From Minisyncoccota bacterium (lineage in GTDB: Bacteria; Patescibacteriota; Minisyncoccia; Phycocordibacterales; UBA9973), in contig JBAZOQ010000002.1 of assembly GCA_041648595.1 (NCBI GenBank), forward strand, positions 10,446 through 74,445: 64,000 nucleotides of DNA, written 5' to 3'. Shown here piece by piece: positions 4,965-61,243 of this stretch (positions within the stretch are counted from its first letter, which is position 1; each line of letters begins with the position of its first letter). A program made the translations under genes and the position numbers. The notes under the pieces were generated by a model. It worked only from the letters and a program-made list of their open reading frames with translations. It was not told the DNA's origin and made no database searches.

Positions 4965-5072
4965 CCCGTTAGAGGCAGGTCGCGTTCGCTTTGAACTTAA
5001 ACTCTGCATTAAATTAACTAATAATAATATTTACATTCTTTTTTCCCGTATGCGACCGCGGCCTCTAACGGG
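4965..5072. mobile_element. Start-codon-associated element, copy a (108 bp) with terminal inverted repeats CCCGTTAGAGGC...GCCTCTAACGGG, between the dnaG stop and rpoD start
   Basis: Perfect terminal inverted repeats are flanked by a TTCAT direct repeat at 4960-4964 and 5074-5078. The element begins immediately after the rpoD ATG. Confidence 0.6.
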
Positions 5073-5082
5073 ATTCATATCT

Positions 5083-6852
5083 TTATTTCCGACCATTTCT
5101 AATTTCTTCTTTCTTTTTATTTATCTCATTTATTTTTTTAAAAATCTCCTCTTCTCCTTCTTTTCCTTTTAACTTTTGAAATTCCATCATTTTTTGAATT
5201 AATTCTTCATTTAAATATTCTTCTTCTATGTTTAACAACATTTCATTCACGTCTTTAATTAAATTTTCATCATTGGAATAAAATTCTTCTGCTTCATAAA
5301 TTAAATCTTCTTTAATATTATTAAAATTTTCTTTAACTTTTTCTAATTTTTCAAAAATTAATTTGGTATCTATTTTTTTTGTTTTTAAACCATCTTGCCA
5401 AAAAGCTATACCCAATAATCTACGTTCAATTGGATCTTTTCTTAATTTTTTTTCTACATTCTCGAGAGCGTTTTTCGTATCTTCTTTTTCATTTTTTAAT
5501 TCAATCTCAACTTTTTTAAGATCTTCAAAAAGAGCACTTGAGGTTATTCCAGATTTATTACTAATTAATGTAATAAAGTGTGATTTTTCTATAGAACTTT
5601 CTAAATCATTAACAAAAGGCAAAATACGTTCTTTTATTCCTCTACCAACCTTTCTACTATCACCAATTGCATCTTTTAAAATTCTTTCCAACATAAATTC
5701 AATAAAATGTTTCGAATCTCGTATTGCTTCACGCCAAGCATCAACACCTTTTTGGGAAATTAAATCAGCTGGATCCATACTCTCTGGCATATTTGCAACT
5801 TTTACGTCCATCCCTAAAGATAAAGCAATCTTTGCAAAACGATTTGTTGCATTTATACCTGCCTTATCTGCATCATAAGCTAGAACAATATTTTTTGATA
5901 ATCTTGTAATAAGTCCAAGATTATTTATAATATTTTCTTTTGATATAAGCGTATCCGTCATAGCTGTGCCAGAAGATGCTACTGTATTCCTAAATCCTGC
6001 TTGGTGTGACAAAATCAAATCCATCTGACCTTCAACTAAAATAGAAAAATTATTTTTTCTAATAGCATCTTTAGCTTTATCTATACCAAAAAGTACAGAA
6101 GATTTATTAAATATTGGGGTTTCTGGACTATTTAAATATTTTGCAGACTTTCCATCGTCTTCAAATATTCTTCCAGAAAAAGCAATAACACGGCTACTTG
6201 AATCAGAAATTGGAAACATTATCCGGCCGCGGAATCTATCATAGAAACCTTTTTCAGCCCCGCCTAGGCTCGGCGAGGCTGGCTTTTTTATAAGTCCAGC
6301 TTTCTCTATATCCGTATCAATAAAACCTTTTTTGTTGAGATAAGAATAAAGTAATCTCCAATCATTTTTTATAAATCCAATTCTAAAATCTTTTATCGTA
6401 TCATCAGTTAAACCACGAGATTTCAAATACTCTAAAACTTCTTTACCTGCCCCGTAGGAAGCTACGTGCTTTCCTTCGGGGTTCCCTACTAAATTATTTT
6501 CAAAAAATTTAGTAGCCTCTTCCATAATCCTATATAATTTTTCTTTTTCTCCTTCCTTTTCCTTATTATATTCTCCAAGTTTTACTCCTGCTCTTTCTGC
6601 TAAAATTTTTAATGCACCCTTAAAATCAAGTCCTTCAAATTCTTCAATAAAAGTAAAAATATCTCCCTTAGCGCCACAACCAAAACAATAATAACTATTG
6701 CGTTCTGGAGAAACAAAAAAGGACGGTGATTTTTCATTATGAAATGGACATCTAGCTTTGAAATTTACACCAACTTGGTCTAATTTTATGTAAGAAGAGA
6801 CTACTTCTTCAATTGATAGTCTATCCTTAATTTGTTGAACGGGAGAATTCAT
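5083..6852 (-). CDS. dnaG: DNA primase DnaG
   Basis: The product has the CHC2 zinc finger CPFHNEKSPSFFVSPERNSYYCFGCGAKGD and a TOPRIM region. The gene order dnaG-rpoD is classic. Confidence 0.9.
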   Translation of the reverse strand: MNSPVQQIKDRLSIEEVVSSYIKLDQVGVNFKARCPFHNEKSPSFFVSPERNSYYCFGCGAKGDIFTFIEEFEGLDFKGALKILAERAGVKLGEYNKEKEGEKEKLYRIMEEATKFFENNLVGNPEGKHVASYGAGKEVLEYLKSRGLTDDTIKDFRIGFIKNDWRLLYSYLNKKGFIDTDIEKAGLIKKPASPSLGGAEKGFYDRFRGRIMFPISDSSSRVIAFSGRIFEDDGKSAKYLNSPETPIFNKSSVLFGIDKAKDAIRKNNFSILVEGQMDLILSHQAGFRNTVASSGTAMTDTLISKENIINNLGLITRLSKNIVLAYDADKAGINATNRFAKIALSLGMDVKVANMPESMDPADLISQKGVDAWREAIRDSKHFIEFMLERILKDAIGDSRKVGRGIKERILPFVNDLESSIEKSHFITLISNKSGITSSALFEDLKKVEIELKNEKEDTKNALENVEKKLRKDPIERRLLGIAFWQDGLKTKKIDTKLIFEKLEKVKENFNNIKEDLIYEAEEFYSNDENLIKDVNEMLLNIEEEYLNEELIQKMMEFQKLKGKEGEEEIFKKINEINKKKEEIRNGRK

Positions 6853-6865
6853 AATAGTTTTTCGC

Positions 6866-6893
6866 TTGACATTTGTTTTTAATTTGCTATTAT
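6866..6893 (+). promoter_or_regulatory. Sigma-70-like promoter: TTGACA, 16-nt spacer, TATTAT
   Basis: Read directly from the sequence. The -10 is palindromic (GCTATTATACT), so it could also serve dnaG on the minus strand. Confidence 0.4.
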
Positions 6894-6920
6894 ACTAATA
6901 TATCACCAACAGAAGAGACT

Positions 6921-6960
6921 ACCCCTTAAGGTTTCGTCCTTATGGGGTCTTTTCTTTTTT
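6921..6960 (+). terminator. Rho-independent terminator hairpin ACCCCTTAAGG-TTTCGT-CCTTATGGGGT followed by a T-run on the plus strand
   Basis: An 11-bp stem is followed by TCTTTTCTTTTTT. It overlaps the 3' end of the NYN gene on the opposite strand. Confidence 0.5.
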
Positions 6961-7449
6961 ATACTCTAATTTAACTCTTAAATCATTTAAAAACCTTAAG
7001 TATGGACGGCAAATTTTAAATTTAAGTAAGGCAGAAAATTTTAAACGATTAGGAACAATAATTACCTGTAACTTTTTTTGTTCTATCAAATACTTTACTA
7101 AACAATAAAAATCACCATCACCTGTCACAATAACTGCTTTTTCATAATTAGAATATTCAATCATTGTTTGTAAAACTAATTCAGCATCACAATTTCCTTT
7201 TGTTGTTCCATCTTTATATTTTAGTGTAGGTTTAAAAATACAAATAAATCCAGCTTCCTGTAAAGATTTATAAAGATCATTGTTTCCTTCTACATAACCA
7301 ATAAAAAGAAACGCTTTTGAAACACTATATTTATCTTTTAAATACACACGAAAGTGCTTAAAATTTAAATTCCAGCCTAAACTACGAATACTTAAATTTA
7401 AATTCTGACTGTCTATAAAAGCATAATTATTTTTTTGCTTATTTGACAT
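6940..7449 (-). CDS. NYN-domain (LabA/PIN-like) protein
   Basis: The product has AFIDSQNL and VIVTGDGDF motifs of NYN/LabA-like nucleases. Confidence 0.7.
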   Translation of the reverse strand: MSNKQKNNYAFIDSQNLNLSIRSLGWNLNFKHFRVYLKDKYSVSKAFLFIGYVEGNNDLYKSLQEAGFICIFKPTLKYKDGTTKGNCDAELVLQTMIEYSNYEKAVIVTGDGDFYCLVKYLIEQKKLQVIIVPNRLKFSALLKFKICRPYLRFLNDLRVKLEYKKEKTP

Positions 7450-7522
7450 ATTTTTGTATCTAAAATACTTTATTTACAATATTTTAAGTCTCTAAAAATT
7501 TTATGCAAGTGAGTTTTATTTT

Positions 7523-10500
7523 TTATTCCTCCTCTTTAGGAGAAATAGTTCTGCTCTTAAATCCAGTTCCTGCTGGAATCAAACGTCCGATAATAACATT
7601 CTCCTTCAATCCTCGGAGTGAGTCAATCCCACCCTTCACTGCATTCTCTATAAGAACACGATTGGTATTTTGGAATGATGCAGCTGACAACCAACTCTTT
7701 GTACGTAAAGATACTTCAGTAATACCAAGTACTATTATTTCTGCTTTTGCTTCTTGTTGTTTTAATTTAACAATTCTCTCGTTCTCTTCAATAAATGCAG
7801 TATTCTCAACAATATCACCTATGGAAAAATTGGTTTCACCTGAATCTTTTATTTTTCTACGTGAAAACATTTGACGAATAATTATTTCAGTATGCTTTCT
7901 AGAGATCGATGCACTTTGAAGTTCATAAACTTTATTTATTTCTCTTATTATATATTCTTCCACCATCTCCTTAGTTCCAAACTTAAATATTCCAGCTATA
8001 TCAGCAGACCCATCGGTTAGGAGTTCACCCTTTTTTACTTTTTGACCTACTTTTACTATTGGTGTTCTACGAAATGGTATTAAATATTCTACTTCGTTTG
8101 CTTTACCATCAACTTTACTATCAGAAAGTACTTTAATAATTTTTTCTTTTTCATCTTTATTTTTTATTTCAAAAACTTCTCCATCTGTTTCTGAAATTAT
8201 TGCTGGGTTTTTAGGAATTCTTCTTTCAAAAATTTCTTCAATACGAGGCAACCCTGTAGTTATGTCTGTACCGGCAACTCCTCCAGCGTGGAATGTTCTA
8301 AGAGTGAGCTGAGTACCTGGTTCTCCAATTGCTTGCGCAGCAATGATTCCAACAGCTTCTCCAAGATCAACTAAATGATTTCTTCCAAGGTCTAATCCAT
8401 AACACATTTGACAAAGACCATGGGTAGTACGACATGTGAGAGGAGAACGAACAAATACTTCTTCATAACCCGCTCCTTCAATATTGTGTGCTTCTTCTTT
8501 TGTAATTAAAAATCCTTTTTTATAAACTACTTTTCCAGCTTTATCTTTCAAATCGCCAGCAAGTACTCGTCCACGGATATTTTTTGATAATGGTATTTCA
8601 ATTCCAGAAATATTTTCTCGAGTTACTATTTTACCTTCTTTTGTTCCACAATCTTCTTCAGTTATAACCACATCTTGAGCAACATCAACTAAACGACGTG
8701 TAAGATATCCAGCCTTGGCAGTATTGAGCGCCGTATCTGATGCACCCTTACGAGCACCGTGTGTTGTAACGAAATATTCAATTGAAGAAAGTCCTTCAAA
8801 ATAACTAGGTATAATAGGAAATTCTAGTGTTCTGCCTTGATTATTTTGTATAAGACCTTTCATTCCAGCCATCTGTATTAAAGAAGTCATTGTGCCTCTA
8901 GCCCCAGAAGTAAATAAATCAAAAGTAGAACCATTTTTATTAAGTGTCTTAGGAAGAACTTTTTCTAATTCCTTTTTTGCATATGTCCAAATTTCAATAA
9001 TTTTTTGATATCTTTCTTCTTCAGAAAGTAAACCTTCATTCCATTGTGCTATTATCTTTTCTTCTAATTTTCTACCTTCTTCTACAATTTTTACTTTTTC
9101 AACTGGAACTTTAACGTTATCCAATCCCCAAGTTGTACCAGAAAAAGTCGAATATTTAAAACCAAAAGTTTTTATACTATCTAATATTGGAGGAGTCTCA
9201 TCCACACCATAATGCATGATAAGTTCGTCAACAAGTGAAGATAGTCTTGTTGATGTCATTTCGTCACCAACATAAGAAAAATCATTGGGTAATATACTAT
9301 TAAATAAAAGTTTCCCAACAGAAGTATCAAAAAAACCTTCCTCAAATTTATGATATTTATGACTATCTGTCGCTAAAACTTTTATTTTTGCCCTAAGAGA
9401 AATAATTCCATATTCATAAGCTGTTATTGCAGTATTTGGACTTGAAAAATATTTACCTTCACCTATCTCACCATCAACAGATTTTGTCATCCAATAAGAT
9501 CCAAGTACAATATCCTTACTAGGATGAACTATTGGGTCACCATTTTGAGGTTTAAGTAAGTTTTTATTAGCAGCCATTAAATTTTTAGCTTCAGCTTGAG
9601 CTTCATCCAATAATGGAACATAAACAGCCATCTGGTCTCCATCGAAATCAGCATTAAAAGCCTGACAAACAAGTGGGTGTACTTGAATAGCATTCCCTTC
9701 TATAAGAATAGGATTAAATGCTTGAATACCTAAACGATGAAGTGTCGGTGCACGATTTAAAAGAACATATTTTCCTTGAATAACTTCTTCAAGCATTGCC
9801 CAAACTTCTGGAGTACGCTCTTCTATAAGTTTATTTGCTCCACGAATATTAAATGCAAGTTCTGCTAGTAAAATTTTAGAAATTACAAAAGGTCTAAACA
9901 ATTCGAGAGCCATATGTTTTGGTAATCCACATTGATTAAGTTTAAGATCAGGACCAACAACAATAACAGATCGGCCTGAATAGTCTACACGTTTACCAAG
10001 TAAGTTTTGACGAAACAAACCTTGTTTTGATTTTAAATTATCAGACAATGATTTTAGTGGACGCTTTTGAGATTGGCTCATAGCAGCACTATCATTTTGT
10101 TTTGCAATTGAATTATCTATAAGAGCATCCACTGCTTCTTGAATAATTCTTTTCTCATTTCGCAGTATTACATCTGGTGCATTTATTTCTTTTAATTTTT
10201 TAAGACGATTGTTTCTATTTATTACTCTACGATAAAGATCATTCAAGTCCGAAGTAGCATGACGCCCACCATCGAGTGCTACCATTGGACGCAATACTGG
10301 AGGAATAACAGGAATTACAGTCAAAAACATCCACTCAGGCCTGATTCCAGCATATGTCATAGCACGGATAAGAGAAAGTCTTTTTTGTAATTTTTCTTTT
10401 TCTATAGCACTTGCTTTTTCAAGCATTTTTTCCGTATGATTTTTTAATTTATTTAAATCAAGATTTTTAAAAATAGAATAAATAGCTTCAGCTCCAATAT

Positions 10501-16792: not shown

Positions 16793-17539
16793 TTATTTCC
16801 TTTTCTTCCATTCTTCTATATTTTTATGATTTCCAGACAATAAAACTTTTGGTACCCCGAAGGAAAGAGTACTTCCTACGGGGCATGCTTTATAATTTTT
16901 ATATAAATTTTTTATAGCTTTAGAAGGTCTGTACTTTATTACTTCTGGTCTCGTATAAACTTCACTTGAAGATATTCTTTCTTCTTCTCTTGAATCATAA
17001 TTACCAAGCACACCTTCTATTTGACGAGAAACACAATCAACTAAAATCATCGCTGGAATTTCTCCACCTGTCAAAACATAATCCCCTATTGATAATAGTT
17101 TAAATTTTAAGAACTTGTCCTGAGCTTGCCGAAGGATCTTATCTACTCTCGCATCTATACCTTCATATCTACCACAAATTAAAATTATATCTGTATATTT
17201 TTTAGAAATATTTTTTGCATAATTAGTCGTAAACTTTTCTGCACTAGGAATAAAATTAATAACCAAAACAGCTTTTAGCTTAGAGCTTTTAGCTTTTAGC
17301 TTTTTAAAAACAAAATCAACAGCTTTTAAAATAGGCTCAGCTCTCATCACCATTCCCGGACCTCCACCATAAGGCTTATCATCTACTGGTTTATAATTAT
17401 TCTTTTGTGCTTTAATAAAGTCCCTTGGGTTATAAAACTTAACAGAAATAAGCTTATTTTTTATCGCTCGCCCAATGATAGACTCATTTAAATACGAATC
17501 AAAAATATCTGGAAAAATTGTAATAATATGGAATCTCAT
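16793..17539 (-). CDS. trmD: tRNA (guanine37-N1)-methyltransferase
   Basis: MRFHIITIFPDIF N-terminus and GGGPGMVM SPOUT knot motifs. Confidence 0.92.
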   Translation of the reverse strand: MRFHIITIFPDIFDSYLNESIIGRAIKNKLISVKFYNPRDFIKAQKNNYKPVDDKPYGGGPGMVMRAEPILKAVDFVFKKLKAKSSKLKAVLVINFIPSAEKFTTNYAKNISKKYTDIILICGRYEGIDARVDKILRQAQDKFLKFKLLSIGDYVLTGGEIPAMILVDCVSRQIEGVLGNYDSREEERISSSEVYTRPEVIKYRPSKAIKNLYKNYKACPVGSTLSFGVPKVLLSGNHKNIEEWKKRK

Positions 17540-17540
17540 A

Positions 17541-17563
17541 GCTTATAGCTTATAGCTTATAGA
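17541..17563. repeat. Tandem heptamer (AGCTTAT)x3 immediately upstream of the trmD ATG
   Basis: Read directly. The related AGCTAAAAGCTAAAACCTATAAGCT on the other side of the hairpin (17610-17640) makes an imperfect inverted arrangement. Confidence 0.6.
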
Positions 17564-17581
17564 AAAAAAACACAAGAACTC

Positions 17582-17606
17582 AAAAACCGCCCGAAGGCGG
17601 TTTTTT
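17582..17606. terminator. Perfect hairpin AAAAACCGCC-CGAA-GGCGGTTTTTT (bidirectional-looking) between ylqC and trmD
   Basis: A 9-bp GC-rich stem with an A-run upstream and a T-run downstream. Possible intra-operon attenuator. Confidence 0.55.
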
Positions 17607-17641
17607 AATTAGCTAAAAGCTAAAACCTATAAGCTAATTTT

Positions 17642-27905: not shown

Positions 27906-27920
27906 TAAAAATTACCAATT

Positions 27921-27979
27921 CACCTCACCCCCGACCCCTCTCCTTAATAAGGAGAGGGGTGCCAAAGGCGGGGTGAGGT
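27921..27979. repeat. GC-rich nested palindromic element (family P1, full-length form CACCTCACCCCCGACCCCTCTCCTTAATAAGGAGAGGGGTGCCAAAGGCGGGGTGAGGT)
   Basis: Outer ACCTCACCCCGCC/GGCGGGGTGAGGT and inner CCCCTCTCCTT/AAGGAGAGGGG inverted repeats. Near-identical copy at 53817. Confidence 0.85.
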
Positions 27980-28207: not shown

Positions 28208-28288
28208 AATGTATTCTATACTAGCATATTAAAGATGAAAAGCAAAATTATACATTTAAGTAAACAAACTATTACACTGAAATACAAC

Positions 28289-28324
28289 TGTCTACTATCT
28301 TTTCATATGTAAAGATAGTAGACA
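28289..28324. repeat. Palindrome TGTCTACTATCTTT-TCATATGT-AAAGATAGTAGACA overlapping the RT stop codon
   Basis: 14-bp perfect stem. Related copy at 61944-61979. Confidence 0.7.
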
Positions 28325-29341
28325 CTAATACAATAGTGTTTAAGAACACCCATATAAGAAGCCATAATTTGTTGAAATTTATCTTTATTTATTTTCCCAA
28401 TAGCTAATTCTTTTCGTGCTTTTTTAAGTTTTTTAAAAATTCTTTTCTTGGTTCTCGTTCTTAATACAATTATGTTAGGTAAAATAACATAACCCACAAA
28501 ATCTATTCCTCGACTTAATTTTCTTATATAAACTTTATCTGGATGTAATTCAAGTTTTAAGTTTTGTTTTAAAAAAATTTCTATTTCTTTTTTGTATAAT
28601 GTAAGCAAATTTTCACTTTCAAAAATTAAGACAAAATCATCAGCATATCTAAAATAATGTTTAATTTTAAGTTTATGTTTTATAAATTGATCCAATTCAT
28701 TTAAATAAATATTTGCAAAAAGTTGGCTAGTTACATTACCCAAAGGAAGTCCAACATTTGGAAACTTCTCAAAACTTTTTAAAATTTTATTAATTAACCA
28801 TAATGTATCTTCGTCTGAAATCTTTTTTTTAATAAGCTCAAATAATATAATATGGTCTATATTTTCAAAAAATTTTCTAATATCACACTTTAAAACAAAA
28901 ACTGGCTGTTTCCAATTTTTACTTTCTTTACGTAAAGCTACAAAAAGTTTTTTTGATGCTTTGTGTGTCCCTTTTTTAAGTCGTGAAGAATATGAATGAA
29001 ATATAAAATGTTTATCAAAAATTTGATATAAAACTCTAAAAACTGCTTGATTTAACACTCTATCTCTAACCACCGCTTTATGTATATGTCTGCGTTTTGG
29101 ATCATACACAAAAAATGCTTGATACTTTGTAGGTTTATAAATTTTACTTATTAGTTCCTTATGTAAAGAAAATAAATTATTTTCTAAATTAAACTCAAAA
29201 TCTGCAACATCTATTTTTTTAGTTTTGCACTTTTTAAATTCCTTCCAAGCTTGAAGTAAATTTGATAAACTTACTACATTATGGAAAAAACTTTGAACAG
29301 CCCCCCCCCCCGACGCAATTTTTGATGTCCTTGTCGTTCAT
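28303..29341 (-). CDS. Diversity-generating retroelement reverse transcriptase (Brt-like); reading frame interrupted at a C11 homopolymer (29301-29311)
   Basis: LPLGNVTSQLFANIYL matches the DGR-RT hallmark (I/L)GxxxSQ motif 4. FRYADDFVLIF is the YADD active site. FFVYDPKRRHIHKAVVRDRVLNQAV and SYSSRLKKGTHKA align block by block with Bordetella Brt. The frame is open upstream of the annotated GTG back to 29337, but the ATG (MNDKDIKNCVGGG) is in another frame. Fusion needs C10 rather than C11. Confidence 0.85.
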
Positions 29342-45347: not shown

Positions 45348-45869
45348 TTAAATTTTAACTAGTGCTTGTTTAGGATAATTTAGTGAAAAGAACTCTTTTG
45401 AAACAACCCACTTATTTATCAATGGACTTAAAGTAAGTGCAAAACCGATATTTCCCGCTAAATGTAATGCGGTAAAAGGAATTTGCATAACTAATGCATT
45501 TAATATAGTCTGTCCAAATATTGGAGCAAATAAAACTCCAGTGACTAAATCAAAAATTATCGTTGCAAAAAATGAAAATAAAGCAAAATGAAATATTGAT
45601 GTTTTAAATTTATTAAAATAAATTGAAGAAAATGCTCCAATTATTCCATAAGTAATTCCAACTATCCAAGTCCAAGACCCAAAATTAGTAAAAACATCAA
45701 ATAAAAAAATACTAAGAAAACCGAAAAGAAAACCGAAAAAAATTCCATATTTACGCCCCAAAGGCATAATAGAAGCCATTATTGGCTCTACATTAGGAGC
45801 TCTTAGTGGAATTAACCTAAATAAAAGACATCCGGTAAATATAATGACTATTTTAAATTTATCTTTCAT
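45348..45869 (-). CDS. Hypothetical polytopic membrane protein
   Basis: Five or six TM helices. Start taken at the ATG of MKDKFKI, because the track start at 45887 lies inside the repeat element. Confidence 0.45.
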   Translation of the reverse strand: MKDKFKIVIIFTGCLLFRLIPLRAPNVEPIMASIMPLGRKYGIFFGFLFGFLSIFLFDVFTNFGSWTWIVGITYGIIGAFSSIYFNKFKTSIFHFALFSFFATIIFDLVTGVLFAPIFGQTILNALVMQIPFTALHLAGNIGFALTLSPLINKWVVSKEFFSLNYPKQALVKI

Positions 45870-45944
45870 CCCGTTAGAAATTTCCATAAAATTCTTATTT
45901 TCTTCAAATTAAACTAATAAACTTGTATCCTATTATTTCTAACG
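45870..45944. mobile_element. Start-codon-associated element, copy b (terminal inverted repeats CCCGTTAGAAAT / ATTTCTAACGGG)
   Basis: Flanked by a TTCAT direct repeat (45865-45869 and 45945-45949). The left end abuts the gene ATG. Confidence 0.65.
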
Positions 45945-45958
45945 GGATTCATGAAGTT

Positions 45959-48554
<2,596 letters not shown>

Positions 48555-51850: not shown

Positions 51851-52313
51851 TTATGAACAAATTCCTGTGGCTTGAGAAATTGAACCTTCTTTAGCCGCAC
51901 CTGCACTATCTACACAAAAGGTTGTAGCTGGAGTTTTCTTTAATGAAACAGAAGCTGACCAAGCATCACCAAGAGTAGAAGCATGAGCACTAACTGTTGC
52001 TCCTGCCGCAGTTGCAGCAGCTTTCAATCCATTTAACATCGTTGCATCAGCAAAGACATCAGTGCATCCTGTAACAACGTTTGGATTAGCACCAGTTACT
52101 GTACAAACAACTGCTGCAGCACTATACTTATTATTTGTATCATAATACATTGAAGCTTGAGCTCTCATATTTGACAAGTTTGCTTTAATAGCAGCATCTG
52201 AACCCTTTGTTCTTGCACTATTCAAAGATGCTAAAACAACTGACGCCAAAATACCAATAATAGCGACAACAACCAACAATTCAATCAACGTAAAACCTTT
52301 TTTAAAATTCTTC
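51851..52313 (-). CDS. pilA: Major type IV pilin (PilA-like)
   Basis: MKNFKKGFTLIELLVVVAIIGILASV and a C-terminal Cys pair. Start taken at MKNFKK (track start 52348 lies inside the upstream palindrome). Confidence 0.85.
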
Positions 52314-52342
52314 ATATTTTTTTTATTTACTAATAATATTTC

Positions 52343-52373
52343 AGCCATAGGCTGATCCGCCTTTGGCGGAAAC
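52343..52373. promoter_or_regulatory. Twin small palindromes TCAGCCATAGGCTGA + TCCGCCTTTGGCGGA upstream of pilA, related to the perfect palindrome upstream of pilM
   Basis: GGCTGATCCGCCTTTGGCGGAAAC vs GGCGGATCCGCCTACTGGCGGAAAA at 61103-61140. Confidence 0.45.
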
Positions 52374-53814: not shown

Positions 53815-53816
53815 TT

Positions 53817-53875
53817 CACCTCACCCCCGTCCCCTCTCCTTATTAAGGAGAGGGGTGCCAAAGGCGGGGTGAAGT
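53817..53875. repeat. GC-rich nested palindromic element (P1 full-length) between pilT and pilC
   Basis: CACCTCACCCCCGTCCCCTCTCCTTATTAAGGAGAGGGGTGCCAAAGGCGGGGTGAAGT, about 95% identical to 27921-27979. Confidence 0.85.
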
Positions 53876-54936
53876 TAAATCATACGCTCAAGACCTTTCG
53901 GGTTCAAAGAAAATTGATAAGCATTCTCAATTGTAATTTCTCCAGCACGGACAAGTTCTAAGAGTGAATGATTTAAATCTATCATGCCAGACTCTGCTCC
54001 TGTCTCAATCACAACATCTATTTCTTGTGTATGTTTTTCACGAATTAAATTCGAAACTGCATTATTATTCAATAACAACTCATAAGCAGGGATAAGACCT
54101 CCAGTTATTCTTGGAATAAGTCTTTGAGAAAAAATACCCAACAAACTAGAAGCAAGTTGAAGGCGAATTTGATCTTGCTGGTCACCAGGAAAAGAATCAA
54201 TAATTCTATCTATAGTTTGTGATGCATTATTAGTATGTAATGTAGAAAGAACAAGATGACCTGTCTCAGCAGCAGTTACTGACGTTGAAATAGTCTCTGG
54301 AGTACGCATTTCCCCTATCATTATCACATTCACATCTTCACGAAAGATTGATTTAAGTGCTGTATGAAAATCTTTAGTATCAATACCAACTTCTCGTTGA
54401 TTAATTATAGATTTATTAGGAGTGTAAACATATTCAATTGGATCTTCTATTGTTATAATATGTCGTGCTTGTTCATTATTAATCAAATTTACCATTGCTG
54501 ATAATGTAGTAGATTTACCTTGCCCAACTGGACCAACTACTAAAAAAAATCCCTGTTTTTTGCGAGCTAACTCTGAAATAATAGGAGGCAAATGTAATTC
54601 TTCAAGTGATTTTACTTTAGGTACTAAACGTAGGGCAACACTAACTAAACCTTTTTGAAAAAAAGCATTGCCACGAAGACGTGCTTCTCCTCGAAAATCA
54701 TAAGAAAAATCCATTTCTTGTTCTTCTAAGAATCTATCTAATTTTACTTTATCTGAAATAATTTCTTTTAAAATACCAAAAACATCTTCTTTCTTTAAAA
54801 CTTGATGCTTTTGTAAAAATACAAGCTCTCCTGCTACGCGAATAGCTGGAACTTTTCCAACACCTAAATGTAAATCTGAACCACTCTCATGGATAACAGT
54901 TAAAATAAGTTCTTCAATTTCTTTTTTATAATCCAT
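53875..54936 (-). CDS. pilT: Twitching-motility pilus retraction ATPase
   Basis: 353 aa with Walker A GPVGQGKST plus Asp and His boxes of PilT/PilU. Confidence 0.88.
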   Translation of the reverse strand: MDYKKEIEELILTVIHESGSDLHLGVGKVPAIRVAGELVFLQKHQVLKKEDVFGILKEIISDKVKLDRFLEEQEMDFSYDFRGEARLRGNAFFQKGLVSVALRLVPKVKSLEELHLPPIISELARKKQGFFLVVGPVGQGKSTTLSAMVNLINNEQARHIITIEDPIEYVYTPNKSIINQREVGIDTKDFHTALKSIFREDVNVIMIGEMRTPETISTSVTAAETGHLVLSTLHTNNASQTIDRIIDSFPGDQQDQIRLQLASSLLGIFSQRLIPRITGGLIPAYELLLNNNAVSNLIREKHTQEIDVVIETGAESGMIDLNHSLLELVRAGEITIENAYQFSLNPKGLERMI

Positions 54937-55013
54937 CCCGTTAGAAATCTATATTAATTAATAATCTCAATTTATTATAACCCGTTTTCAATATTTTCAT
55001 TATTTCTAACGGG
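54937..55013. mobile_element. Start-codon-associated element, copy c (CCCGTTAGAAAT...ATTTCTAACGGG) abutting the pilT ATG
   Basis: ATCCAT direct repeat at both ends. Internal TTATTATAACCCGTTTTCAATATTTTCATT is about 85% identical to copies d and e. Confidence 0.7.
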
Positions 55014-55027
55014 ATCCATAATTTTTT

Positions 55028-55095
55028 GTGGTGTTAAGCTCGTAGTTTATGTGGCATTAAACTCGTAGTTTATGTGGCGTTAAGCTTGTAATTAT
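55028..55095. repeat. Three tandem 23-bp direct repeats (GTGGYRTTAARCTYGTARTTTAT)
   Basis: GTGGTGTTAAGCTCGTAGTTTAT / GTGGCATTAAACTCGTAGTTTAT / GTGGCGTTAAGCTTGTAATTAT. Lies between the response-regulator stop and the pilT upstream element. Confidence 0.7.
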
Positions 55096-55534: not shown

Positions 55535-55569
55535 CCACCCCGCCCTTTAGGTACCCCTCAAGAGGGGAA
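55535..55569. repeat. GC-rich palindromic unit (CCACCCCGCCCTTTAGG + CCCCTCAAGAGGGG), P2-related
   Basis: Read directly. Downstream of the DUF559 gene. Confidence 0.6.
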
Positions 55570-56025
55570 TTTTAATGCAGATTTTCTTTTTTTTATTGTT
55601 TCTAATACAAATCTATAAACATTTCCTATATTTTTCTTCACATCAATATCAGATATTCTAATTACTTGTAAATTTAGACTCTGCATAAAATTATTTCTTC
55701 CAGCATCATATTCTTCTTTTTCATCATGACTTGACCCGTCTATTTCAAAAACTAGTCCCAATTCAGGAACAAAAAAATCAACAATATAATTACCTATAAT
55801 AACTTGTCTATCAATATCAAAATCTAATTTCTTTTTATTTTTAAACGTTTGCCAAAATATAACTTCCGATAAATTTCCCGCTTTTCTTAATTCCTTTGTT
55901 TTTTCTATTAATAATTTATTTTTAGGAATTTCCCAGTATGGGTATAAAGATTTCGGATTCCAATATTCCCCTCTTGAGGGGTAGCTCGCTTTAACGAGAC
56001 GAGGTGGAGAGGATTTTTGGGGCAT
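55558..56025 (-). CDS. DUF559 endonuclease-like domain protein
   Basis: YIVDFFVPELGLVFEIDGSSHDEKEEYDAGRNNFMQSLNLQVIRI matches the DUF559 core. The annotated first ~20 codons are encoded by the P2 repeat at 55967-56012, so the true start is probably further downstream. Confidence 0.6.
   Translation of the reverse strand: MPQKSSPPRLVKASYPSRGEYWNPKSLYPYWEIPKNKLLIEKTKELRKAGNLSEVIFWQTFKNKKKLDFDIDRQVIIGNYIVDFFVPELGLVFEIDGSSHDEKEEYDAGRNNFMQSLNLQVIRISDIDVKKNIGNVYRFVLETIKKRKSALKFPS
55967..56012. repeat. P2 element TTCCCCTCTTGAGGGGTAGCTCGCTTTAACGAGACGAGGTGGAGAGG
   Basis: Homologous to 52484 and 56334. Overlaps the 5' end of the DUF559 ORF. Confidence 0.8.
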
Positions 56026-56387: not shown

Positions 56388-58139
56388 TTATTCATTCTCA
56401 TTAATAAAATTATAAACCTCTCTATATGGAATAATACCATCTAATGCTTTAAGCATAGCATCTTCCCTCATCATCAACATTCCGTCGGCTCGAGCCACTT
56501 TATAAATTTCGGAATCAACAGGATTTTTTAATATGACTTTTTGCATTTCTTTGCCTACTTTAAACATTTCAAAAATAGCAATACGACCGCGAGTGCCAGA
56601 AGGACAATCAGGTGATGGCACAACATCATACATTTCATTTTTAATTTCAATTTCTTTTTTAAATTTTTCTGGCAAATCTTTTATTTGATCTTCTATCTGC
56701 AATTTAATACTAGGATCCATAGGAACAAGCTTACGAGATGCAGGAAAAGTCATCTTGGCTAAACGTTGTGCAATAGATAATATAAGAGTAGGCGCAATAA
56801 GATAAGGATCAACTCCCATGTCAATCAAACGAGGAATAGCACCAATGGCATTATTCGTATGAAGCGTAGATAAAACAAGGTGCCCCGTCAAAGCTGCCTG
56901 AATAGCTAATTGAGCTGTTTCTTTATCACGTATTTCTCCAACCATTATTATGTCAGGATCCTGACGAAGAATAGAACGAAGTCCTGAAGCAAATGTATAT
57001 CCAATTTCAGGCATCATCTGAGATTGATTAATATCAGGCATATGATACTCTATTGGATCTTCTAAAGATACAATATTACTTACTTCTTTTTCTAACTCAT
57101 TCATCATTGAATATAATGTCGTAGATTTTCCAGACCCTGTCGGACCAGTAATTAAAATAAGTCCATAAGGCTTTGTTATTGCTTCTCTAAGCATATCAAG
57201 ATTTCTTTTAGACAATCCTAATTGATCCAATGGTTTGACTCCTTTTTCTGCATCTAAAATACGTATAACTATTTTTTCTCCATAATAAGATGGCATAGTA
57301 GATACACGAAAATCAATTTTATGCTCATCAAAATTAGTACTAAAAGATCCATCTTGTGGTTTTCTTTTTTCGTCCAAACGCAACTTAGCTAAAATTTTTA
57401 TACGAGCTACAATACCATTGTAAACATTGGGTGGTAAAATAATACTCGTATGCAAAATTCCATCCACACGAAAACGTACTTTTATTTTTTCTCCTACATT
57501 TTCTATATGGATATCAGAAGCACCACCTTCTATAGCATTACGTAATATAACAGCAACAATTTTTATAACAGGTGCATCTTCAACTATTTTTACTTCTTCG
57601 TTTAATTTTGTATTTTTAATTTCTCTGTTTAAATTCTTTGATTCATTTAAACTTTTTATATTACTCGTTTCTTCTTGATTTAATTCATTAAGTGCTTCTT
57701 CCACTTGAACTGATATACCTTTATATGTTTCTACTATATTTTTATAATCAGTATTAGAGATAAGAAAAATTTTAAAAGGAATACCTGATTTAGCTGAAAT
57801 AAATTGTAATGCATCTATCGCTTGCGTGTTTTCTCCGTCCGTAATACCTACCTCTAAAACCCCCTCTTTAAATTCAAGTGGAACAAAACGATAATGTGTT
57901 GCTGCATCCTCTGGAATATATTTTAAAACTTCAAAGGATATATCTTTTATATTTACTTTCTTTGTCGGTATTTTTAAATACTCTCCTTTTGTAAGAAGTA
58001 TTTTATCTTCTGGTATACCTATTTCAATTAAAGTTTCATCAATATCACCACCATGCTTATCTCTAGCAAGGTTCTTAATTTCATCTATTTGGCTCTTATC
58101 AATAAAGCCCTTTTTAACTAATTCTTCTAAAAAACTCAT
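56388..58139 (-). CDS. pilB: Type IV pilus assembly ATPase (GspE family)
   Basis: N-terminal GSPII_E domain. Walker A GPTGSGKSTTL, Asp/His boxes and a tetracysteine-like CPSG motif. Confidence 0.92.
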   Translation of the reverse strand: MSFLEELVKKGFIDKSQIDEIKNLARDKHGGDIDETLIEIGIPEDKILLTKGEYLKIPTKKVNIKDISFEVLKYIPEDAATHYRFVPLEFKEGVLEVGITDGENTQAIDALQFISAKSGIPFKIFLISNTDYKNIVETYKGISVQVEEALNELNQEETSNIKSLNESKNLNREIKNTKLNEEVKIVEDAPVIKIVAVILRNAIEGGASDIHIENVGEKIKVRFRVDGILHTSIILPPNVYNGIVARIKILAKLRLDEKRKPQDGSFSTNFDEHKIDFRVSTMPSYYGEKIVIRILDAEKGVKPLDQLGLSKRNLDMLREAITKPYGLILITGPTGSGKSTTLYSMMNELEKEVSNIVSLEDPIEYHMPDINQSQMMPEIGYTFASGLRSILRQDPDIIMVGEIRDKETAQLAIQAALTGHLVLSTLHTNNAIGAIPRLIDMGVDPYLIAPTLILSIAQRLAKMTFPASRKLVPMDPSIKLQIEDQIKDLPEKFKKEIEIKNEMYDVVPSPDCPSGTRGRIAIFEMFKVGKEMQKVILKNPVDSEIYKVARADGMLMMREDAMLKALDGIIPYREVYNFINENE

Positions 58140-58216
58140 CCCGTTAGAAATTTATATTAATTAATAATCTTAATTTATTATAACCCGTTTTTAATATTTT
58201 CGTTATTCCTAACGGG
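58140..58216. mobile_element. Start-codon-associated element, copy d, abutting the pilB ATG
   Basis: CCCGTTAGAAAT...CCTAACGGG with an ACTCAT direct repeat (58134-58139 and 58217-58222). Confidence 0.7.
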
Positions 58217-58234
58217 ACTCATAATTAATTTAAT

Positions 58235-58606
58235 TTAAGGAGATGCAGGAATAGAGAGTACAGAAGGAGCTTCATAACCAATAGGAGCAAAAGGATTTGA
58301 TCTTCCTTCATCTCCTGAAGGAGAAAGCAAAATACTAGAATCATGTAAATTAATAAATACTGTATTAGAAAAAATAGAATTATTTAATTTTATTTTTTTA
58401 ACATTTAATAAAAGAGCAAGAAAATCTTTTGCAATCAAAGAGTTCTTGTTTGAATTATCTACATTCGATTCTGTTGTACCAGTCGAGATAGCAGAAGAAA
58501 TTAAATTCTGAACTTCTGGCGATTTTTTAATAAAAAAAATATAAACTAAAATTAGTATAGCCCCAATTATTACATATATTATAATATTTTTTATTTTTGA
58601 ACTCAT
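58235..58606 (-). CDS. Hypothetical membrane-anchored protein in the pilus assembly operon (PilP-like position)
   Basis: N-terminal TM helix. Lies downstream of pilO. Confidence 0.4.
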   Translation of the reverse strand: MSSKIKNIIIYVIIGAILILVYIFFIKKSPEVQNLISSAISTGTTESNVDNSNKNSLIAKDFLALLLNVKKIKLNNSIFSNTVFINLHDSSILLSPSGDEGRSNPFAPIGYEAPSVLSIPASP

Positions 58607-58607
58607 T

Positions 58608-59210
58608 TTAATTTTTTAGCCAATAAGTTTTAATTTTAAAATTGTATGTATAAGTATCAGGTAAAGTTGAAGTAAGTCCTATTTTTGTATTCAAAAAAAA
58701 CTGAATTGAAGATATATCTACTATCCTAAGATTATTTTCTAAATCTTTTATAAGATTCAAGAAACTATTGTATGTTCCTTGTGTAGAAAACTCTAAATTC
58801 CACATACCATAATCTTTACCAGAAGAACTTTTTATTCCCTTTGTTGTATTAGTAGTTTGTATTGTTTGTGTTGTACTTGTATTCTTATCTATTGTATCGT
58901 ATTTTACATTTTTAAGTACCATTCCATATGGTGATGCTATTTTTTCTATTTCAAGAATTAAACGAATATTATCAATATTATCTGGTAAAAGTTTTTGAAG
59001 TCTAATTAAATCTTCTTCATTAAAAGAATTATATTTCTGTGTCAATTTATCTCGTTCAGATTCTAAGGCCTTAGAATTAACAAGAGCTTCATTATATGAA
59101 GTCTCTTGTTCTCTTTCCAAAGAAATAGTCTCATAGAGTGGTTTAGTAAAGGTAAAAAAGAGAGCTACTGCAATACCTATTAAAATGGTTGGCAAAATAA
59201 ATTTAAACAT
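58608..59210 (-). CDS. pilO: PilO-like pilus assembly protein
   Basis: N-terminal TM helix and coiled coil. Operon position after pilN. Confidence 0.6.
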   Translation of the reverse strand: MFKFILPTILIGIAVALFFTFTKPLYETISLEREQETSYNEALVNSKALESERDKLTQKYNSFNEEDLIRLQKLLPDNIDNIRLILEIEKIASPYGMVLKNVKYDTIDKNTSTTQTIQTTNTTKGIKSSSGKDYGMWNLEFSTQGTYNSFLNLIKDLENNLRIVDISSIQFFLNTKIGLTSTLPDTYTYNFKIKTYWLKN

Positions 59211-59212
59211 AA

Positions 59213-59851
59213 TTAATTTAATACATTTGTATTGTCTTTAAGTATAGAGGTAGGATTTTGATTTGTAGTCTCAAATACTTTTTTATAATCAAGAAAAACT
59301 GGATCGACCGAAAATTCTAAATCAAAAACAACATTACCTTTATCGTCAAGTAAAAGATTAGAAAAAACAGGATCAATGAAATATTTATTTTTTGCAAAAA
59401 TATCTGACTGAAGAGCAACAGATCTATATCCCAAAGCAACTCCACTCATTTTTACTATTATTTTTGTATTAGCATCATCAACTACATAACTAAATTTAGT
59501 ATAACTTACAGTCTTCATTGTAATCGCCTGAAGTTCTTCAAAAATAGGAGAGATAGCAACGTGTTTAGATAATATTTCACTTGAAGCATCTAAACGTTTA
59601 TCTAAAATTTGAAGCTGAGTTATTTTTGCTGGTTCAAAACGATCTTTTGCTAAAGTTAAATCGCTTTCCATTTTTGAAATATTTTTTGTTAAAATACCTT
59701 TATAAAAATAAAGAGCTCCAGTAGCTATAACAATAGTAAGAAAAATAAAAATAGAAATTATCGTCAAAATACTAATTGATCGTGACTTAACAGCCCGATC
59801 CTCAATCATCGGTTTTTTAGGTATAAAAGATGTTTGAAAATTTTGCTCCAT
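59213..59851 (-). CDS. pilN: PilN-like pilus assembly protein
   Basis: Short cytoplasmic N-terminus, TM helix and periplasmic domain. Directly downstream of pilM. Confidence 0.6.
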   Translation of the reverse strand: MEQNFQTSFIPKKPMIEDRAVKSRSISILTIISIFIFLTIVIATGALYFYKGILTKNISKMESDLTLAKDRFEPAKITQLQILDKRLDASSEILSKHVAISPIFEELQAITMKTVSYTKFSYVVDDANTKIIVKMSGVALGYRSVALQSDIFAKNKYFIDPVFSNLLLDDKGNVVFDLEFSVDPVFLDYKKVFETTNQNPTSILKDNTNVLN

Positions 59852-59929
59852 CCCGTTAGAAATTTATACTTAACTAATAATACTCACCTTCGATATCCCG
59901 TTTCCAATATTTCTGTTATTTCTAACGGG
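59852..59929. mobile_element. Start-codon-associated element, copy e, abutting the pilN ATG
   Basis: CCCGTTAGAAAT...ATTTCTAACGGG with a TCCAT direct repeat. Internal GATATCCCGTTTCC. Confidence 0.7.
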
Positions 59930-59968
59930 ATCCATTTTATTTATTATATCCTTACTCTATTATCGCAC

Positions 59969-61096
59969 TTATTGTAACTTTCTCAATGCTAAACCTATTG
60001 CAACTGCAAATTCTGGACCTGTTGTTTCTAAAACTTTTCTCAAAAACTCTGGTGCAGCAACTTTAGAAAAAGGATGCCCTATTTCTATTTCTGCTCGAAA
60101 ATTATTAGAAGCCATTTCTTTTAATCCTTTTAATTGTGATCCACCTCCTGTAAATATTACTTTACTAATAGTTCTATCATATCTCTTTTCATATCCTAAT
60201 AATACATTATTAGTTTCTGAAAAAATATAATCTATATGTACTTTAATTATATCTGCCAAACTTTTTTCTGCAGAATTTTCAAAAAGACCAAATTCTTTTT
60301 TCATATCTTCAGCTTTTGAAAATGGTATGCCTAAAGATTGAGAAATTGATGAGGAAATATCTGCTCCACCACGATTTATTGTATGATAACTTTTAACCAT
60401 ACCAAATTCTACAAGAGAAAGTTTCGTACTCGATGCACCAAAATCAATTAAAAGAACAAAAGAAAGTTCATGCTCAAAATTTGACCTAACCGAAGAAAAA
60501 ATTTCAATTTCAAAAAAATCAGATTCCAAACCACAGTCTGTAGAAATAGAACGATATTTTGAAATTGCGTCATTCTGAATTGCAACAACAAGTACTTCTG
60601 TATTTTCTGATAAATTAGAAGCTGAAGCTGGATTGTTCGCTTCTTCAAAAGAAGATTCCTTTTTAGGTAATATAAAATAATCAAGAGAAACTTCTGTCAT
60701 GGGTAATGGTATATACTTACGAGCTTCTGTTGGAATTATTTGTGGTATTTCACTTTCTTTAACCTGTGATGGAAGCGAAATAGGAAAAATTAAACTTGAT
60801 TGTACTGGAATAGAAAAAGCAGAAGAAACTGTCGTCACGCCAGCTTGTTTCAAAACTTCTTTTAAAGCCTCAACTGTTTTATCGGTTGGAAGATTTGTCA
60901 CACGTCCCACATCCACACCAGCATAAGAACCCAATGCAATAGAACCATAAGTCTCAAGAACTGCTTTTCCTCCTTTTTTCTTTATTTCAACAACTTTAAT
61001 AGAAGAAGAACCAATGTCTATACCAACAGCACTATCATTTCCTTCTTTAGCAAAAAAGTTTATATTTGAAAAAAATTTTTTGATTGGATTATCCAT
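59969..61096 (-). CDS. pilM: PilM (actin-like ATPase fold) pilus assembly protein
   Basis: GIDIGSSSIKVVEI phosphate-1 motif and FtsA/PilM-like layout. Confidence 0.88.
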   Translation of the reverse strand: MDNPIKKFFSNINFFAKEGNDSAVGIDIGSSSIKVVEIKKKGGKAVLETYGSIALGSYAGVDVGRVTNLPTDKTVEALKEVLKQAGVTTVSSAFSIPVQSSLIFPISLPSQVKESEIPQIIPTEARKYIPLPMTEVSLDYFILPKKESSFEEANNPASASNLSENTEVLVVAIQNDAISKYRSISTDCGLESDFFEIEIFSSVRSNFEHELSFVLLIDFGASSTKLSLVEFGMVKSYHTINRGGADISSSISQSLGIPFSKAEDMKKEFGLFENSAEKSLADIIKVHIDYIFSETNNVLLGYEKRYDRTISKVIFTGGGSQLKGLKEMASNNFRAEIEIGHPFSKVAAPEFLRKVLETTGPEFAVAIGLALRKLQ

Positions 61097-61102
61097 ATTT
61101 TT

Positions 61103-61140
61103 TCCGCCAGTAGGCGGATCCGCCTACTGGCGGAAAATTA
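61103..61140. promoter_or_regulatory. Perfect 38-bp palindrome TTTTCCGCCAGTAGGCGGATCCGCCTACTGGCGGAAAA, 6 bp upstream of the pilM start
   Basis: Self-complementary over the full length, centred on GGATCC. Related to 52343-52373 upstream of pilA. Confidence 0.5.
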
Positions 61141-61175
61141 TGCTAAAATACATCTTCAGTATATCATATACTTGT

Positions 61176-61243
61176 CCCGTTAGAAATTCACTTAAGGGGA
61201 TAATTATATAATACAACAATTATTATTAATAATTTCTAATGGG
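61176..61243. mobile_element. Start-codon-associated element, copy f (CCCGTTAGAAATT...AATTTCTAATGGG) ending exactly at the comF ATG
   Basis: Terminal inverted repeats with one mismatch. No flanking direct repeat. Confidence 0.6.

Follow-up and report, generated by a model that had tools for sequence, protein, structure and literature searches.

How could six short DNA segments with matching ends come to lie exactly at the start codons of six genes? The question is raised by a 64-kb stretch (the window) of contig JBAZOQ010000002.1 from a Minisyncoccota bacterium, in which each of six elements (copies a to f; Table 1) adjoins a gene start codon. An earlier reading of the same stretch, made without database searches (the original prediction), had proposed either insertions resembling MITEs (small transposable elements bounded by inverted repeats) at ATG-containing targets or mobile leader and promoter modules that co-regulate pilus and competence genes. 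We find, with a probability of about 85%, that the elements are MITE-like nonautonomous transposons mobilized in trans by an enzyme whose cuts are staggered by 4 bp.

Element ends, target duplications, and regeneration of start codons

The exact 12-mer CCCGTTAGAAAT occurs nine times in the window on the two strands together, and it is confined to the six elements. When up to two mismatches were allowed, 16 matches were found against 5.5 expected, a number attained by none of 100 shuffled sequences. The heptamer CCCGTTA occurs six times in the 64 kb, each time as the left end of an element, and ATTTCTAACGGG or a close variant immediately precedes the ATG in all six copies. The existence of six copies bounded by terminal inverted repeats (TIRs), each abutting the ATG of a gene, was thus confirmed. 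The coordinates proposed for the cores of copies a, c, d, e, and f also hold, whereas copy b ends at 45946 rather than 45944. Copies c, d, and e each contain a third CCCGTT motif (at 54981, 58184, and 59897), as predicted, but the ~85% identity ascribed to the interiors of these three copies does not hold: it is 92% for the c/d pair only and 67 to 70% for c/e and d/e.

We scanned 185,579 species genomes, one per species, with the pattern CCCGTTAGAAAT-N35-65-ATTTCTAACGGG, which yielded at least 120 loci; anatomy and flank statistics were taken over 139 elements. Their ends form a 13-bp TIR, Y-CCCGTTAGAAAT ... ATTTCTAACGGG-R, also written Y-CCCGTTAG...CTAACGGG-R (Y, pyrimidine; R, purine; the two arms are called arm-L and arm-R), which encloses a variable interior of ~35 to 95 bp. 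Element lengths range from 57 to 127 bp, with clusters at 60, 63, 66, and 75 to 81 bp. Perfect 12-bp arms were found in 140 of the 159 detected copies, a proportion to be read with the fact that the scan pattern required perfect arms of primary matches.

The base to the left of CCC is a pyrimidine and that to the right of GGG a purine, the two being complementary in 94% of elements. When the left and right flanks are compared, the four central positions show identities of 0.84, 0.76, 0.81, and 0.83, as opposed to 0.36 and 0.50 for the outermost positions of what looks like a repeated 6-mer. Because the outer positions are unrepeated and the terminal bases are complementary, the TIR is 13 bp and the target site duplication (TSD) 4 bp long. 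The TSD has the form YNNR, mostly TNNA, with a few 3- and 5-bp cases, and the two flanking 4-mers are identical in 88 of the 139 copies. Targets reconstructed outside gene starts read R/YNNR/Y, with R/TNNA/Y preferred (slashes mark the borders of the duplicated or exchanged bases); TTAA makes up 2 of the 44 identical duplications found there. The 5- to 6-bp direct repeats described by the original prediction arise because the terminal Y and R of the element mimic the bases that flank the target. Five window copies are indeed duplicated, but the true TSD is 4 bp, to which one base of the 13-bp TIR had been added.

Almost half of the elements (62 of 139, or 45%) are followed immediately by an ATG, GTG, or TTG at the head of an open frame of 80 codons or more and have no more than a short open frame upstream. 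Start-like sites account for just 0.7% of all TNNA sites in the same loci, and for 5.4% of the non-coding and start sites taken together. The 6-mer upstream of these elements is nearly always ATGNNY and the downstream one ATGNNN or GTGNNN. The recurrent pair ATGAAC...GTGAAA, which derives from an original A/TGAA/A site, implies that the first base of the new start codon comes from the terminal base of the element. At the level of sequence, this demonstrates that insertion into A/TGNN duplicates TGNN and that the terminal purine, joined to TG, rebuilds a start codon, which is ATG for elements ending in T..A and GTG for those ending in C..G. The upstream copy retains the old ATG, which then heads a short upstream open reading frame (uORF) whose stop codon lies inside the element. 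The gene itself is left intact, including genes that lie 4 nt from the preceding gene or overlap it. In 10 cases the duplicated TGA doubles as the stop codon of the preceding gene, so that from an ancestral ATGA overlap both genes survive.

In the window, all five duplicated copies as well as copy f sit on start codons, in a setting of 770 non-coding and 35 start-associated NTNNAN sites, and the same placement was found for 14 of 14 copies in the clade of close relatives. The genes downstream in other genomes are unrelated housekeeping genes and include those for tRNA synthetases, DnaA, MurJ, pyruvate kinase, and a hibernation factor, among others. Two other rules were considered and rejected. 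Stop codons are not the main target, as only 14 duplications begin with an in-frame stop, 10 of which are the ATGA overlaps. Likewise, element lengths show no bias toward frames in which the uORF would stop within arm-R or at ATGA, as coupling between the stop of the uORF and the gene start would entail.

The elements of the start-codon class are strongly polar. A third, partial arm (NCGGG), in the sense of arm-R and located near arm-L, is found in 27 of them and in the opposite orientation in 1; outside this class, the two orientations number 8 and 12. Many elements ending in C..G contain a Shine-Dalgarno-like sequence together with an ATG whose frame continues into arm-R (for instance at loci L029, L033, L034, L061, L069, L078, and L117), so that the protein would begin with M-x(4-9)-I-S-N-G-V. 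A family member at L039:1264-1362 lies in the leader-peptide region of a type IV pilin gene and, through an internal ATG and a 1-nt insertion in arm-R, encodes the new leader MITKISKRG/FTLIELLVV.

A further 22 elements lie within long open reading frames (ORFs) and are read through, 21 of them having a length that is a multiple of three. Such in-frame copies inside essential genes represent ~15% of the elements. The arms are free of stop codons in two of three frames on either strand, the third frame containing TAG and TAA, and the peptides read through them are PVRN...ISNG in fifteen cases and PLEI...FLTG in eight. The host genes code for GatB, Tex, a Mur ligase, an AIR-synthase-family enzyme, a class II aminoacyl-tRNA synthetase, and a thiamine pyrophosphate enzyme. 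The insertions interrupt Pfam domains, the matched stretches being longer than the profile by roughly the size of the insert; they add 19 to 29 residues to the enzymes and are presumably translated. This placement was seen in other genomes, while none of the six window copies is inside an ORF.

Insertion polymorphism and distribution across bacteria

The original prediction had proposed that orthologous loci in related genomes would reveal empty sites, and exact ones were found. We compared four sites between the window and four relatives (L205 to L208), whose PilB proteins are 85 to 86% identical. The comF site, occupied in the window, is empty in L205, L206, and L208 and carries a copy of the same subtype (ACGTGT type) in L207. 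At pilN, an element is present in the window, L205, and L206, and L207 and L208 are empty. The pilB site bears a copy of the duplication type in the window and one of the ACTTGT subtype, without duplication, in L206, and is empty in the three other relatives. At pilT, the window copy corresponds to a decayed copy in L205, a 118-bp copy of the long subtype in L206, a copy of the same subtype in L207, and an empty site in L208. The exact empty sites read ...ctaaattaatt/ATGAGTTTTTTA for pilB in L205, ...aataaacaaa/ATGGATCAAAAT for pilN in L208, and ...aattaactaatt/ATGGATTATAAA for pilT in L208. In the syntenic L002/L205 locus, with ~79% nucleotide identity to the window, copy e is thus matched, copies f and d are absent, and the site of copy c holds the decayed copy. 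Different subtypes occupy the same start codon in the window and L206 at both pilB and pilT. This mosaic of presence and absence, the exact empty sites, and the exchange of subtypes on one start codon indicate that the elements are mobile.

Interior identity among orthologous copies is 76 to 80% in the pilN group and 78 to 89% in the pilT group. Copy d, at pilB, has an interior 92 to 93% identical to those of the pilT copies. Copy d is thus a near-duplicate of the pilT element at a site, pilB, where three relatives have none, and local transposition is the better explanation for the clustering in the pilus operon. The arms of orthologous pilN copies match at 12 of 12 positions, while interiors and flanking genes have diverged by ~20%, which argues that arms are constrained or homogenized. 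PilB orthologs of at most 59% identity have no element, and their N termini align with the downstream ATG of the window gene. Separately, a gene for a DUF559 protein (Vsr-like endonuclease fold) lies at 55558-56025 in the window, between pilB and a response-regulator gene; other genes or nothing were found in its place in L205 to L208, marking a variable spot in the pilus cluster.

Some elements occur in close company. The long subtype, of 108 to 127 bp with repeats of roughly 25 bp, includes window copy a. In L206, two near-identical 118-bp copies of it (6986-7103 and 7511-7628), 0.5 kb apart, sit on the starts of a response-regulator gene and of pilT, and both share the same 1-nt insertion in arm-R (CTAAACGGG). 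At L091:346-1350 and L035:4522-7345, four family members each lie within 1 to 3 kb, with nested or overlapping copies at L091:865-1007.

A distinct subtype lacks the duplication. Eight loci, including copy f, have A/CTTG/T, A/CGTG/T, or A/CCTG/T on the side distal to the gene, and three further loci have A/CGCG/C, A/CCCG/C, or G/CTTG/C there. The gene's own TGNN is kept on the proximal side in every case, and comparison with empty sites showed that the A in front of the foreign 4-mer is retained from the old ATG, the 4-bp copy alone being different. The foreign 4-mer travels with the interior subtype from genome to genome; the ACTTGT subtype of copy f, for example, was also found in L012, L013, L015, L021, and L063. 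By analogy with piggyBac, an excised element may carry four bases of the donor flank to its new site, which we regard as a lead. The U-G-U or C-G-C of this subtype can wobble-pair with AUG or GUG in RNA only, and in view of this pairing an RNA-level role of the hairpin is possible.

The family occurs in at least 10 phylum-level groups. Among the matches listed, record titles name about 65 Patescibacteria of many classes, 24 Planctomycetota, and 9 Deltaproteobacteria, Thermodesulfobacteriota, or Syntrophaceae; Gammaproteobacteria, Omnitrophota, Elusimicrobia, and Nitrospiraceae are represented by 2 each, WOR-3, KSB1, Stahlbacteria, Edwardsbacteria, and Clostridia by 1 each, and 9 are unclassified. 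Interiors are mostly unrelated between loci and track the base composition of the host, although some subtypes recur across genomes. In viral contigs only 3 paired copies were found, and the 81 single-arm matches there are partnerless and at chance level. A description of the family was not found in the searchable literature, which is not proof that it is undescribed. Neither the 12-mer nor both 8-mers turned up in a relevant context, and publications on MITEs, start codons, and the Candidate Phyla Radiation (CPR) yielded nothing on such elements. A 2024 review of prokaryotic MITEs does not mention insertion at start codons (PMC10969869).

Nature of the elements and alternative explanations

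Terminal inverted repeats, a fixed 4-bp TSD, a length of 57 to 127 bp, several related copies per genome, and empty sites together make the elements MITE-like. The idea of MITE-like insertions at ATG-containing targets is supported in particular by a 4-bp TSD that includes the TG of the start codon, by the empty sites, and by repeated hits of different subtypes on one start. We infer that a DDE-type enzyme moves them. The excess at start codons would then reflect a target preference for ATG-like hexamers combined with strong selection, in that only start-codon insertions in the right orientation would keep the gene expressed. The surviving orientation would set an A/T-rich leader beside the gene, often with a Shine-Dalgarno sequence and ATG of its own, and would hold the short hairpin between arm-L and the third arm away from the start. 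Ribosomes that initiate at the old ATG would melt the long hairpin on read-through transcripts. The chemistry of transposition may be similar to that of piggyBac and IS1380.

Several observations weigh against this reading. About one-third of the copies lack identical 4-bp flanks; in some these differ by 1 nt, others have duplications of 3 or 5 bp, and in the ACYTGT/ACGCGC class the distal 4-mer is unrelated. Ends of 12 to 13 bp that do not vary between phyla are unusual for MITEs, and the MITE-like reading does not account for them. Neither a transposase nor a full-length element with these ends was found in the window, in ~1.6 Mb of fetched loci, or in viral contigs. No arm pairs 0.2 to 6 kb apart enclose an ORF in the fetched loci, and no transposase domains were detected in the window ORFs or in the tested ORFs that neighbor element-dense loci; those beside the L091 and L035 clusters encode RibD, an MFS transporter, GidA, acetate kinase, and a PilZ-domain protein. 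Finally, if the enzyme specifically prefers ATGRRN, 34 of the 80 permissive sites in the window are starts, which may make the targeting less special, although some nine independent events that all hit starts would still be improbable (~4e-4).

We weighed the MITE-like reading against a native cis-regulatory leader, i.e., an RNA hairpin, thermometer, attenuator, or operator pair of a pilus, competence, and sigma factor regulon that was never inserted. If both arms are transcribed, a hairpin of 13 to 17 bp is predicted, with energies of -20 to -42 kcal/mol and z scores of -2.9 to -5.6, in which the start codon is paired through its first base or first two bases. The original prediction had extended this hairpin over the start codon and the ribosome-binding site; the predicted fold does reach the first 1 or 2 bases of the start, but no ribosome-binding site is sequestered, because there are almost no Shine-Dalgarno sites (upstream of 7 of 57 window genes). 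At other gene starts in the window, no comparable inverted repeat abuts an ATG except for an unrelated one at 17539-17636: there, the heptamer ATAAGCT, repeated three times, forms a 24-nt inverted repeat (arms 17539-17562 and 17613-17636, 50 nt apart) that adjoins the ATG of ORF 16793-17539, in the same position relative to the start but with another sequence. Besides such stable hairpins, a native leader would account for the better conservation of arms than interiors and for the UGU-AUG pairing that is possible in RNA only in the ACYTGT subtype. Among 7 oriented arm mismatches, 6 give G.U on the sense strand (one-sided P of ~0.06), too few to argue for selection at the RNA level. Rfam searches gave a tRNA-Ser as the sole gathering-score match in the window and, at E values of up to 10, two chance-level matches over copy c (E of 4.7 and 6.1), thus no credible match to a known RNA; ARAGORN reported one tRNA-Ser and nothing else, so that a tRNA-like origin is unsupported. 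The exactly empty orthologous starts of close relatives, the absence of an element from distant PilB orthologs, the unrelated downstream genes, the copies inside coding regions, and the flanking duplications are all at odds with a native leader. This explanation is hardly tenable, having already been largely refuted by the empty sites. Co-regulation of pilus and competence genes, as put forward by the original prediction, fails for similar reasons: the downstream genes are unrelated, copies lie within ORFs, and the pilus genes of relatives are often without an element. A leader specific for rpoD was also rejected, as the same long subtype precedes an acetolactate-synthase-like gene in L091.

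An element moved by a site-specific recombinase, by way of a lox- or dif-like core on an excised circle, as an invertible promoter switch, or as an integron-like cassette, is very unlikely. The joined ends, ATTTCTAACGGG-RTNNAY-CCCGTTAGAAAT, would form a near-perfect palindromic site resembling a recombination core, with 12-bp arms and a 6-bp spacer; some copies have unrelated flanks, like the coupling sequences of Tn916-type elements; and the GTTAGA/TCTAAC of the arms resembles attC R boxes. However, the exchanged segment is 4 bp long, compared with 6 to 8 bp for tyrosine and 2 bp for serine recombinases, and a circle or invertible segment of ~60 to 80 bp is at or below the size that such recombinases handle. 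The 27:1 polarity argues against an invertible switch, the order GTTAGA...TCTAAC is reversed relative to attC, and no recombinase gene lies nearby in the loci examined.

The alternative that deserves more credit, although we still doubt it, holds that the same mobile DNA has been domesticated, the elements being kept as portable promoter or translation-start cassettes that benefit the host, for instance by uncoupling genes from packed operons in a genome that lacks Shine-Dalgarno sites. Strict polarity relative to the gene, the Shine-Dalgarno-like sequence and in-frame ATG of many C..G-ended elements, the pilin leader peptide rebuilt in L039, ancestral spacers of just 4 to 33 nt at the sites of copies a, b, d, and e, orthologous copies kept with intact arms since the divergence of species, and the TATAAT of copies c and d are all consistent with it. 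On the other side, a sigma-70 promoter scan found no more sites than in shuffled sequence, a comparison that is uninformative in A/T-rich DNA, and the TATAAT of copies c and d has no properly spaced -35. A -10-like hexamer at the junction of interior and arm-R is, by our estimate, about as common as composition predicts. Each of the four compared sites is element-free in one or more relatives, the pilT copy of L205 is decaying, and purifying selection alone can explain the polarity.

Comparison with known systems places the elements as a kind of MITE that is unusual for its regeneration of starts, its coding-compatible arms, and the conservation of its ends across phyla. Rickettsia palindromic elements (RPEs) are likewise short palindromic mobile elements tolerated within genes and read through in frame; they are ~100 to 150 bp long and found in Rickettsia only (PMC10969869). 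By comparison of descriptions only, the present family differs in its length of 57 to 127 bp and its occurrence in at least ten phylum-level groups, and nearly half of its copies rebuild start codons, which is unreported for RPEs in the same review (PMC10969869). Correia elements (CREE/NEMIS) are also small, TIR-bounded, and nonautonomous, often lie upstream of genes, form hairpins in transcripts, and can donate promoters (PMC10969869). They are genus-specific, in contrast to the multiphylum family described here. Their TA duplication and 26-bp repeats contrast with a 4-bp duplication, 13-bp repeats, a junction inside the start codon, and a promoter scan at the level of shuffled sequence. In cluster K mycobacteriophages, the SAS and ESAS are said to be short conserved motifs, sometimes with an inverted partner, at a fixed distance of a few bases upstream of unrelated starts; reportedly, they are expression signals of one phage cluster, without target duplications or insertion polymorphism. 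The motif in our case instead terminates a mobile element and is found in the genomes of cellular organisms from many phyla.

In their ends and TSD the elements resemble piggyBac, which likewise has a 4-bp TSD with T...A ends and 13-bp repeats that begin with CCC and contain TAGAAA; its end, TTAA/CCCTAGAAAGATA, compares with TNNA/Y-CCCGTTAGAAAT here. Relatives of piggyBac have CCC ends with occasional TAAA, TCAA, or TATG duplications, and IS1380 is the prokaryotic outgroup; IS1380 elements have CC ends and 4- to 5-bp duplications, as catalogued in ISfinder. Excised piggyBac ends carry four flanking donor bases as overhangs, which would explain the travelling CTTG, CGTG, or CCTG 4-mer. Unlike piggyBac, the present elements have no TTAA specificity (TNNA/YNNR) and place an extra Y/R base between duplication and CCC. 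The match between ends amounts to 9 bases with a 2-nt indel and could be due to chance, and no DDD/DDE transposase was found. We thus treat kinship with piggyBac and IS1380 as a lead, not as a claim of membership. More speculative, and in our judgment doubtful, is a bolder version in which the elements constitute a pan-bacterial transposon superfamily, possibly the prokaryotic counterpart of piggyBac, with an enzyme that actively homes to start codons. Its nonautonomous derivatives would serve as start, leader, or promoter cassettes that rewire the operons of streamlined genomes, seamless excision would be possible, and the invariance of the 13-bp end would reflect a single conserved DNA-binding specificity or a further role of the hairpin, at the RNA level, in controlling the start codon.

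The window copies, neighboring repeats, and significance

Table 1. The six elements of the window (strand, that of the downstream gene)
Copy	Span	Strand	Core	Flanking 4-mers	Downstream start codon	Upstream neighbor	Other parts
a	4960..5077	-	4965-5072 (108 bp, long subtype)	TTCA, 4960-4963 and 5074-5077	rpoD ATG, 4964-4962	dnaG stop, 5083-5085	Terminal bases 4964 and 5073; arms CCCGTTAGAGGC and GCCTCTAACGGG, extended by CGCGGTCGC and GCGACC; partial third arm CCCGT, 5045-5049
b	45865..45951	-	45870-45946	TTCA, 45865-45868 and 45948-45951	ATG of ECF-S-like membrane protein gene, 45869-45867	ligA stop	In-frame internal ATG, 45887
c	54932..55018	-	54937-55013	TCCA, 54932-54935 and 55015-55018	pilT, 54936-54934		Partial third arm, 54981-54986; old ATG, 55019-55017
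d	58135..58221	-	58140-58216	CTCA, 58135-58138 and 58218-58221	pilB, 58139-58137		Partial third arm, 58184-58189
e	59847..59934	-	59852-59929	TCCA, 59847-59850 and 59931-59934	ATG of pilN-like gene, 59851-59849	pilM	Partial third arm, 59897-59902
f	61170..61248	+	61176-61243 (ACTTGT subtype)	No duplication; left A/CTTG/T (61170-61175), right A/TGAA	comF, 61244-61246

Pfam matches confirm the genes next to the elements (Table 1) as those for RpoD, an ECF-S-like membrane protein, the PilT and PilB ATPases, and ComF, and the upstream neighbors as those for DnaG, LigA, a response regulator, and PilM. The proposed "pilN" has no Pfam match but lies directly 3' of pilM. Before copy a inserted, 4 nt would have separated the dnaG stop from the rpoD start, and the T at 4964 is the A of the rpoD ATG on the gene strand. 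Copy a has the same polarity as its long-subtype counterpart at the acetolactate-synthase-like gene (L091:346-465). In copy c, the third arm is followed by TATAAT on the gene strand, and the old ATG opens the uORF MDPVRNNENIENGL. Copy d has a single G.U-type mismatch between its arms, and the N terminus of the PilB protein encoded downstream, MSFLEEL, aligns with the starts of orthologs. The arm-R of copy f, ATTTCTAATGGG, also contains one G.U-type mismatch, and its UUGU-AUGA pairing would be possible in RNA only.

Arm-R follows immediately on an in-frame stop in copies c, d, and e, which makes the downstream ATG the start codon. Copies a and b have in-frame internal ATGs, at 5009 and 45887, the latter of which would extend the protein by MEISNG. 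The original prediction had dismissed N termini of this kind as artefacts of the ORF list, which is correct in part: both ATGs are encoded by the element, yet they may serve as starts, because related elements elsewhere clearly supply an in-frame internal ATG. The window has a G+C content of ~30%, its leaders are A/T-rich, and many genes overlap or sit 2 to 30 nt apart.

The window contains other repeats. A second, G+C-rich family of palindromes of ~57 bp, TTCACCCCGCC..CACCCCTCTCCTTA.TAAGGAGAGGGG.CGGGGGTGAGGTGAA, is found after gene ends at 27919-27975 and 53815-53872 (minus strand), where it creates false ORFs extended to a TTG. Related copies at ~47480-47545 and ~47695-47740 are apparently in frame inside ligA (45959-48046), which encodes NAD-dependent DNA ligase. 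Three tandem copies of a 23-nt unit (TTTATGTGGCGTTAAGCTCGTAG) lie at 55023-55090, with the response-regulator gene on one side and the old ATG of the pilT element on the other. A perfect 38-bp palindrome, TTTTCCGCCAGTAGGCGGATCCGCCTACTGGCGGAAAA, at 61100-61137 separates pilM from the divergent comF; it is absent from L002/L205, whose spacer measures just 32 nt. A hairpin of similar type (CCGCC...GGCGG) is found ahead of ORF 51851-52348. A 109-residue ORF at 29345-29674 matches the bAvd-like family (PF22296, E = 3.7e-10), bAvd being the accessory protein of diversity-generating retroelements; close to it, at 28274-28339, is a 33-nt inverted repeat.

If confirmed, this would be the first family of bacterial mobile elements whose insertion chemistry and ends are fitted to start codons, a fit combined with RPE-like tolerance in frame and with near-identical ends from Patescibacteria to Planctomycetota and Desulfobacterota. 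Gene callers may misplace N termini at the elements, as exemplified by the ORF starts at 5009 and 45887, and copies within ORFs lengthen essential enzymes in numerous genomes assembled from metagenomes. Behind the family there would be an undiscovered transposase that cuts with a 4-bp stagger and may carry over donor flanks, one that would be of interest for genome engineering. In CPR genomes, which are poor in other mobile elements, the elements mark recent rearrangements of operons, and they offer a natural test case of how far selection alone shapes the distribution of transposons in gene-dense genomes.

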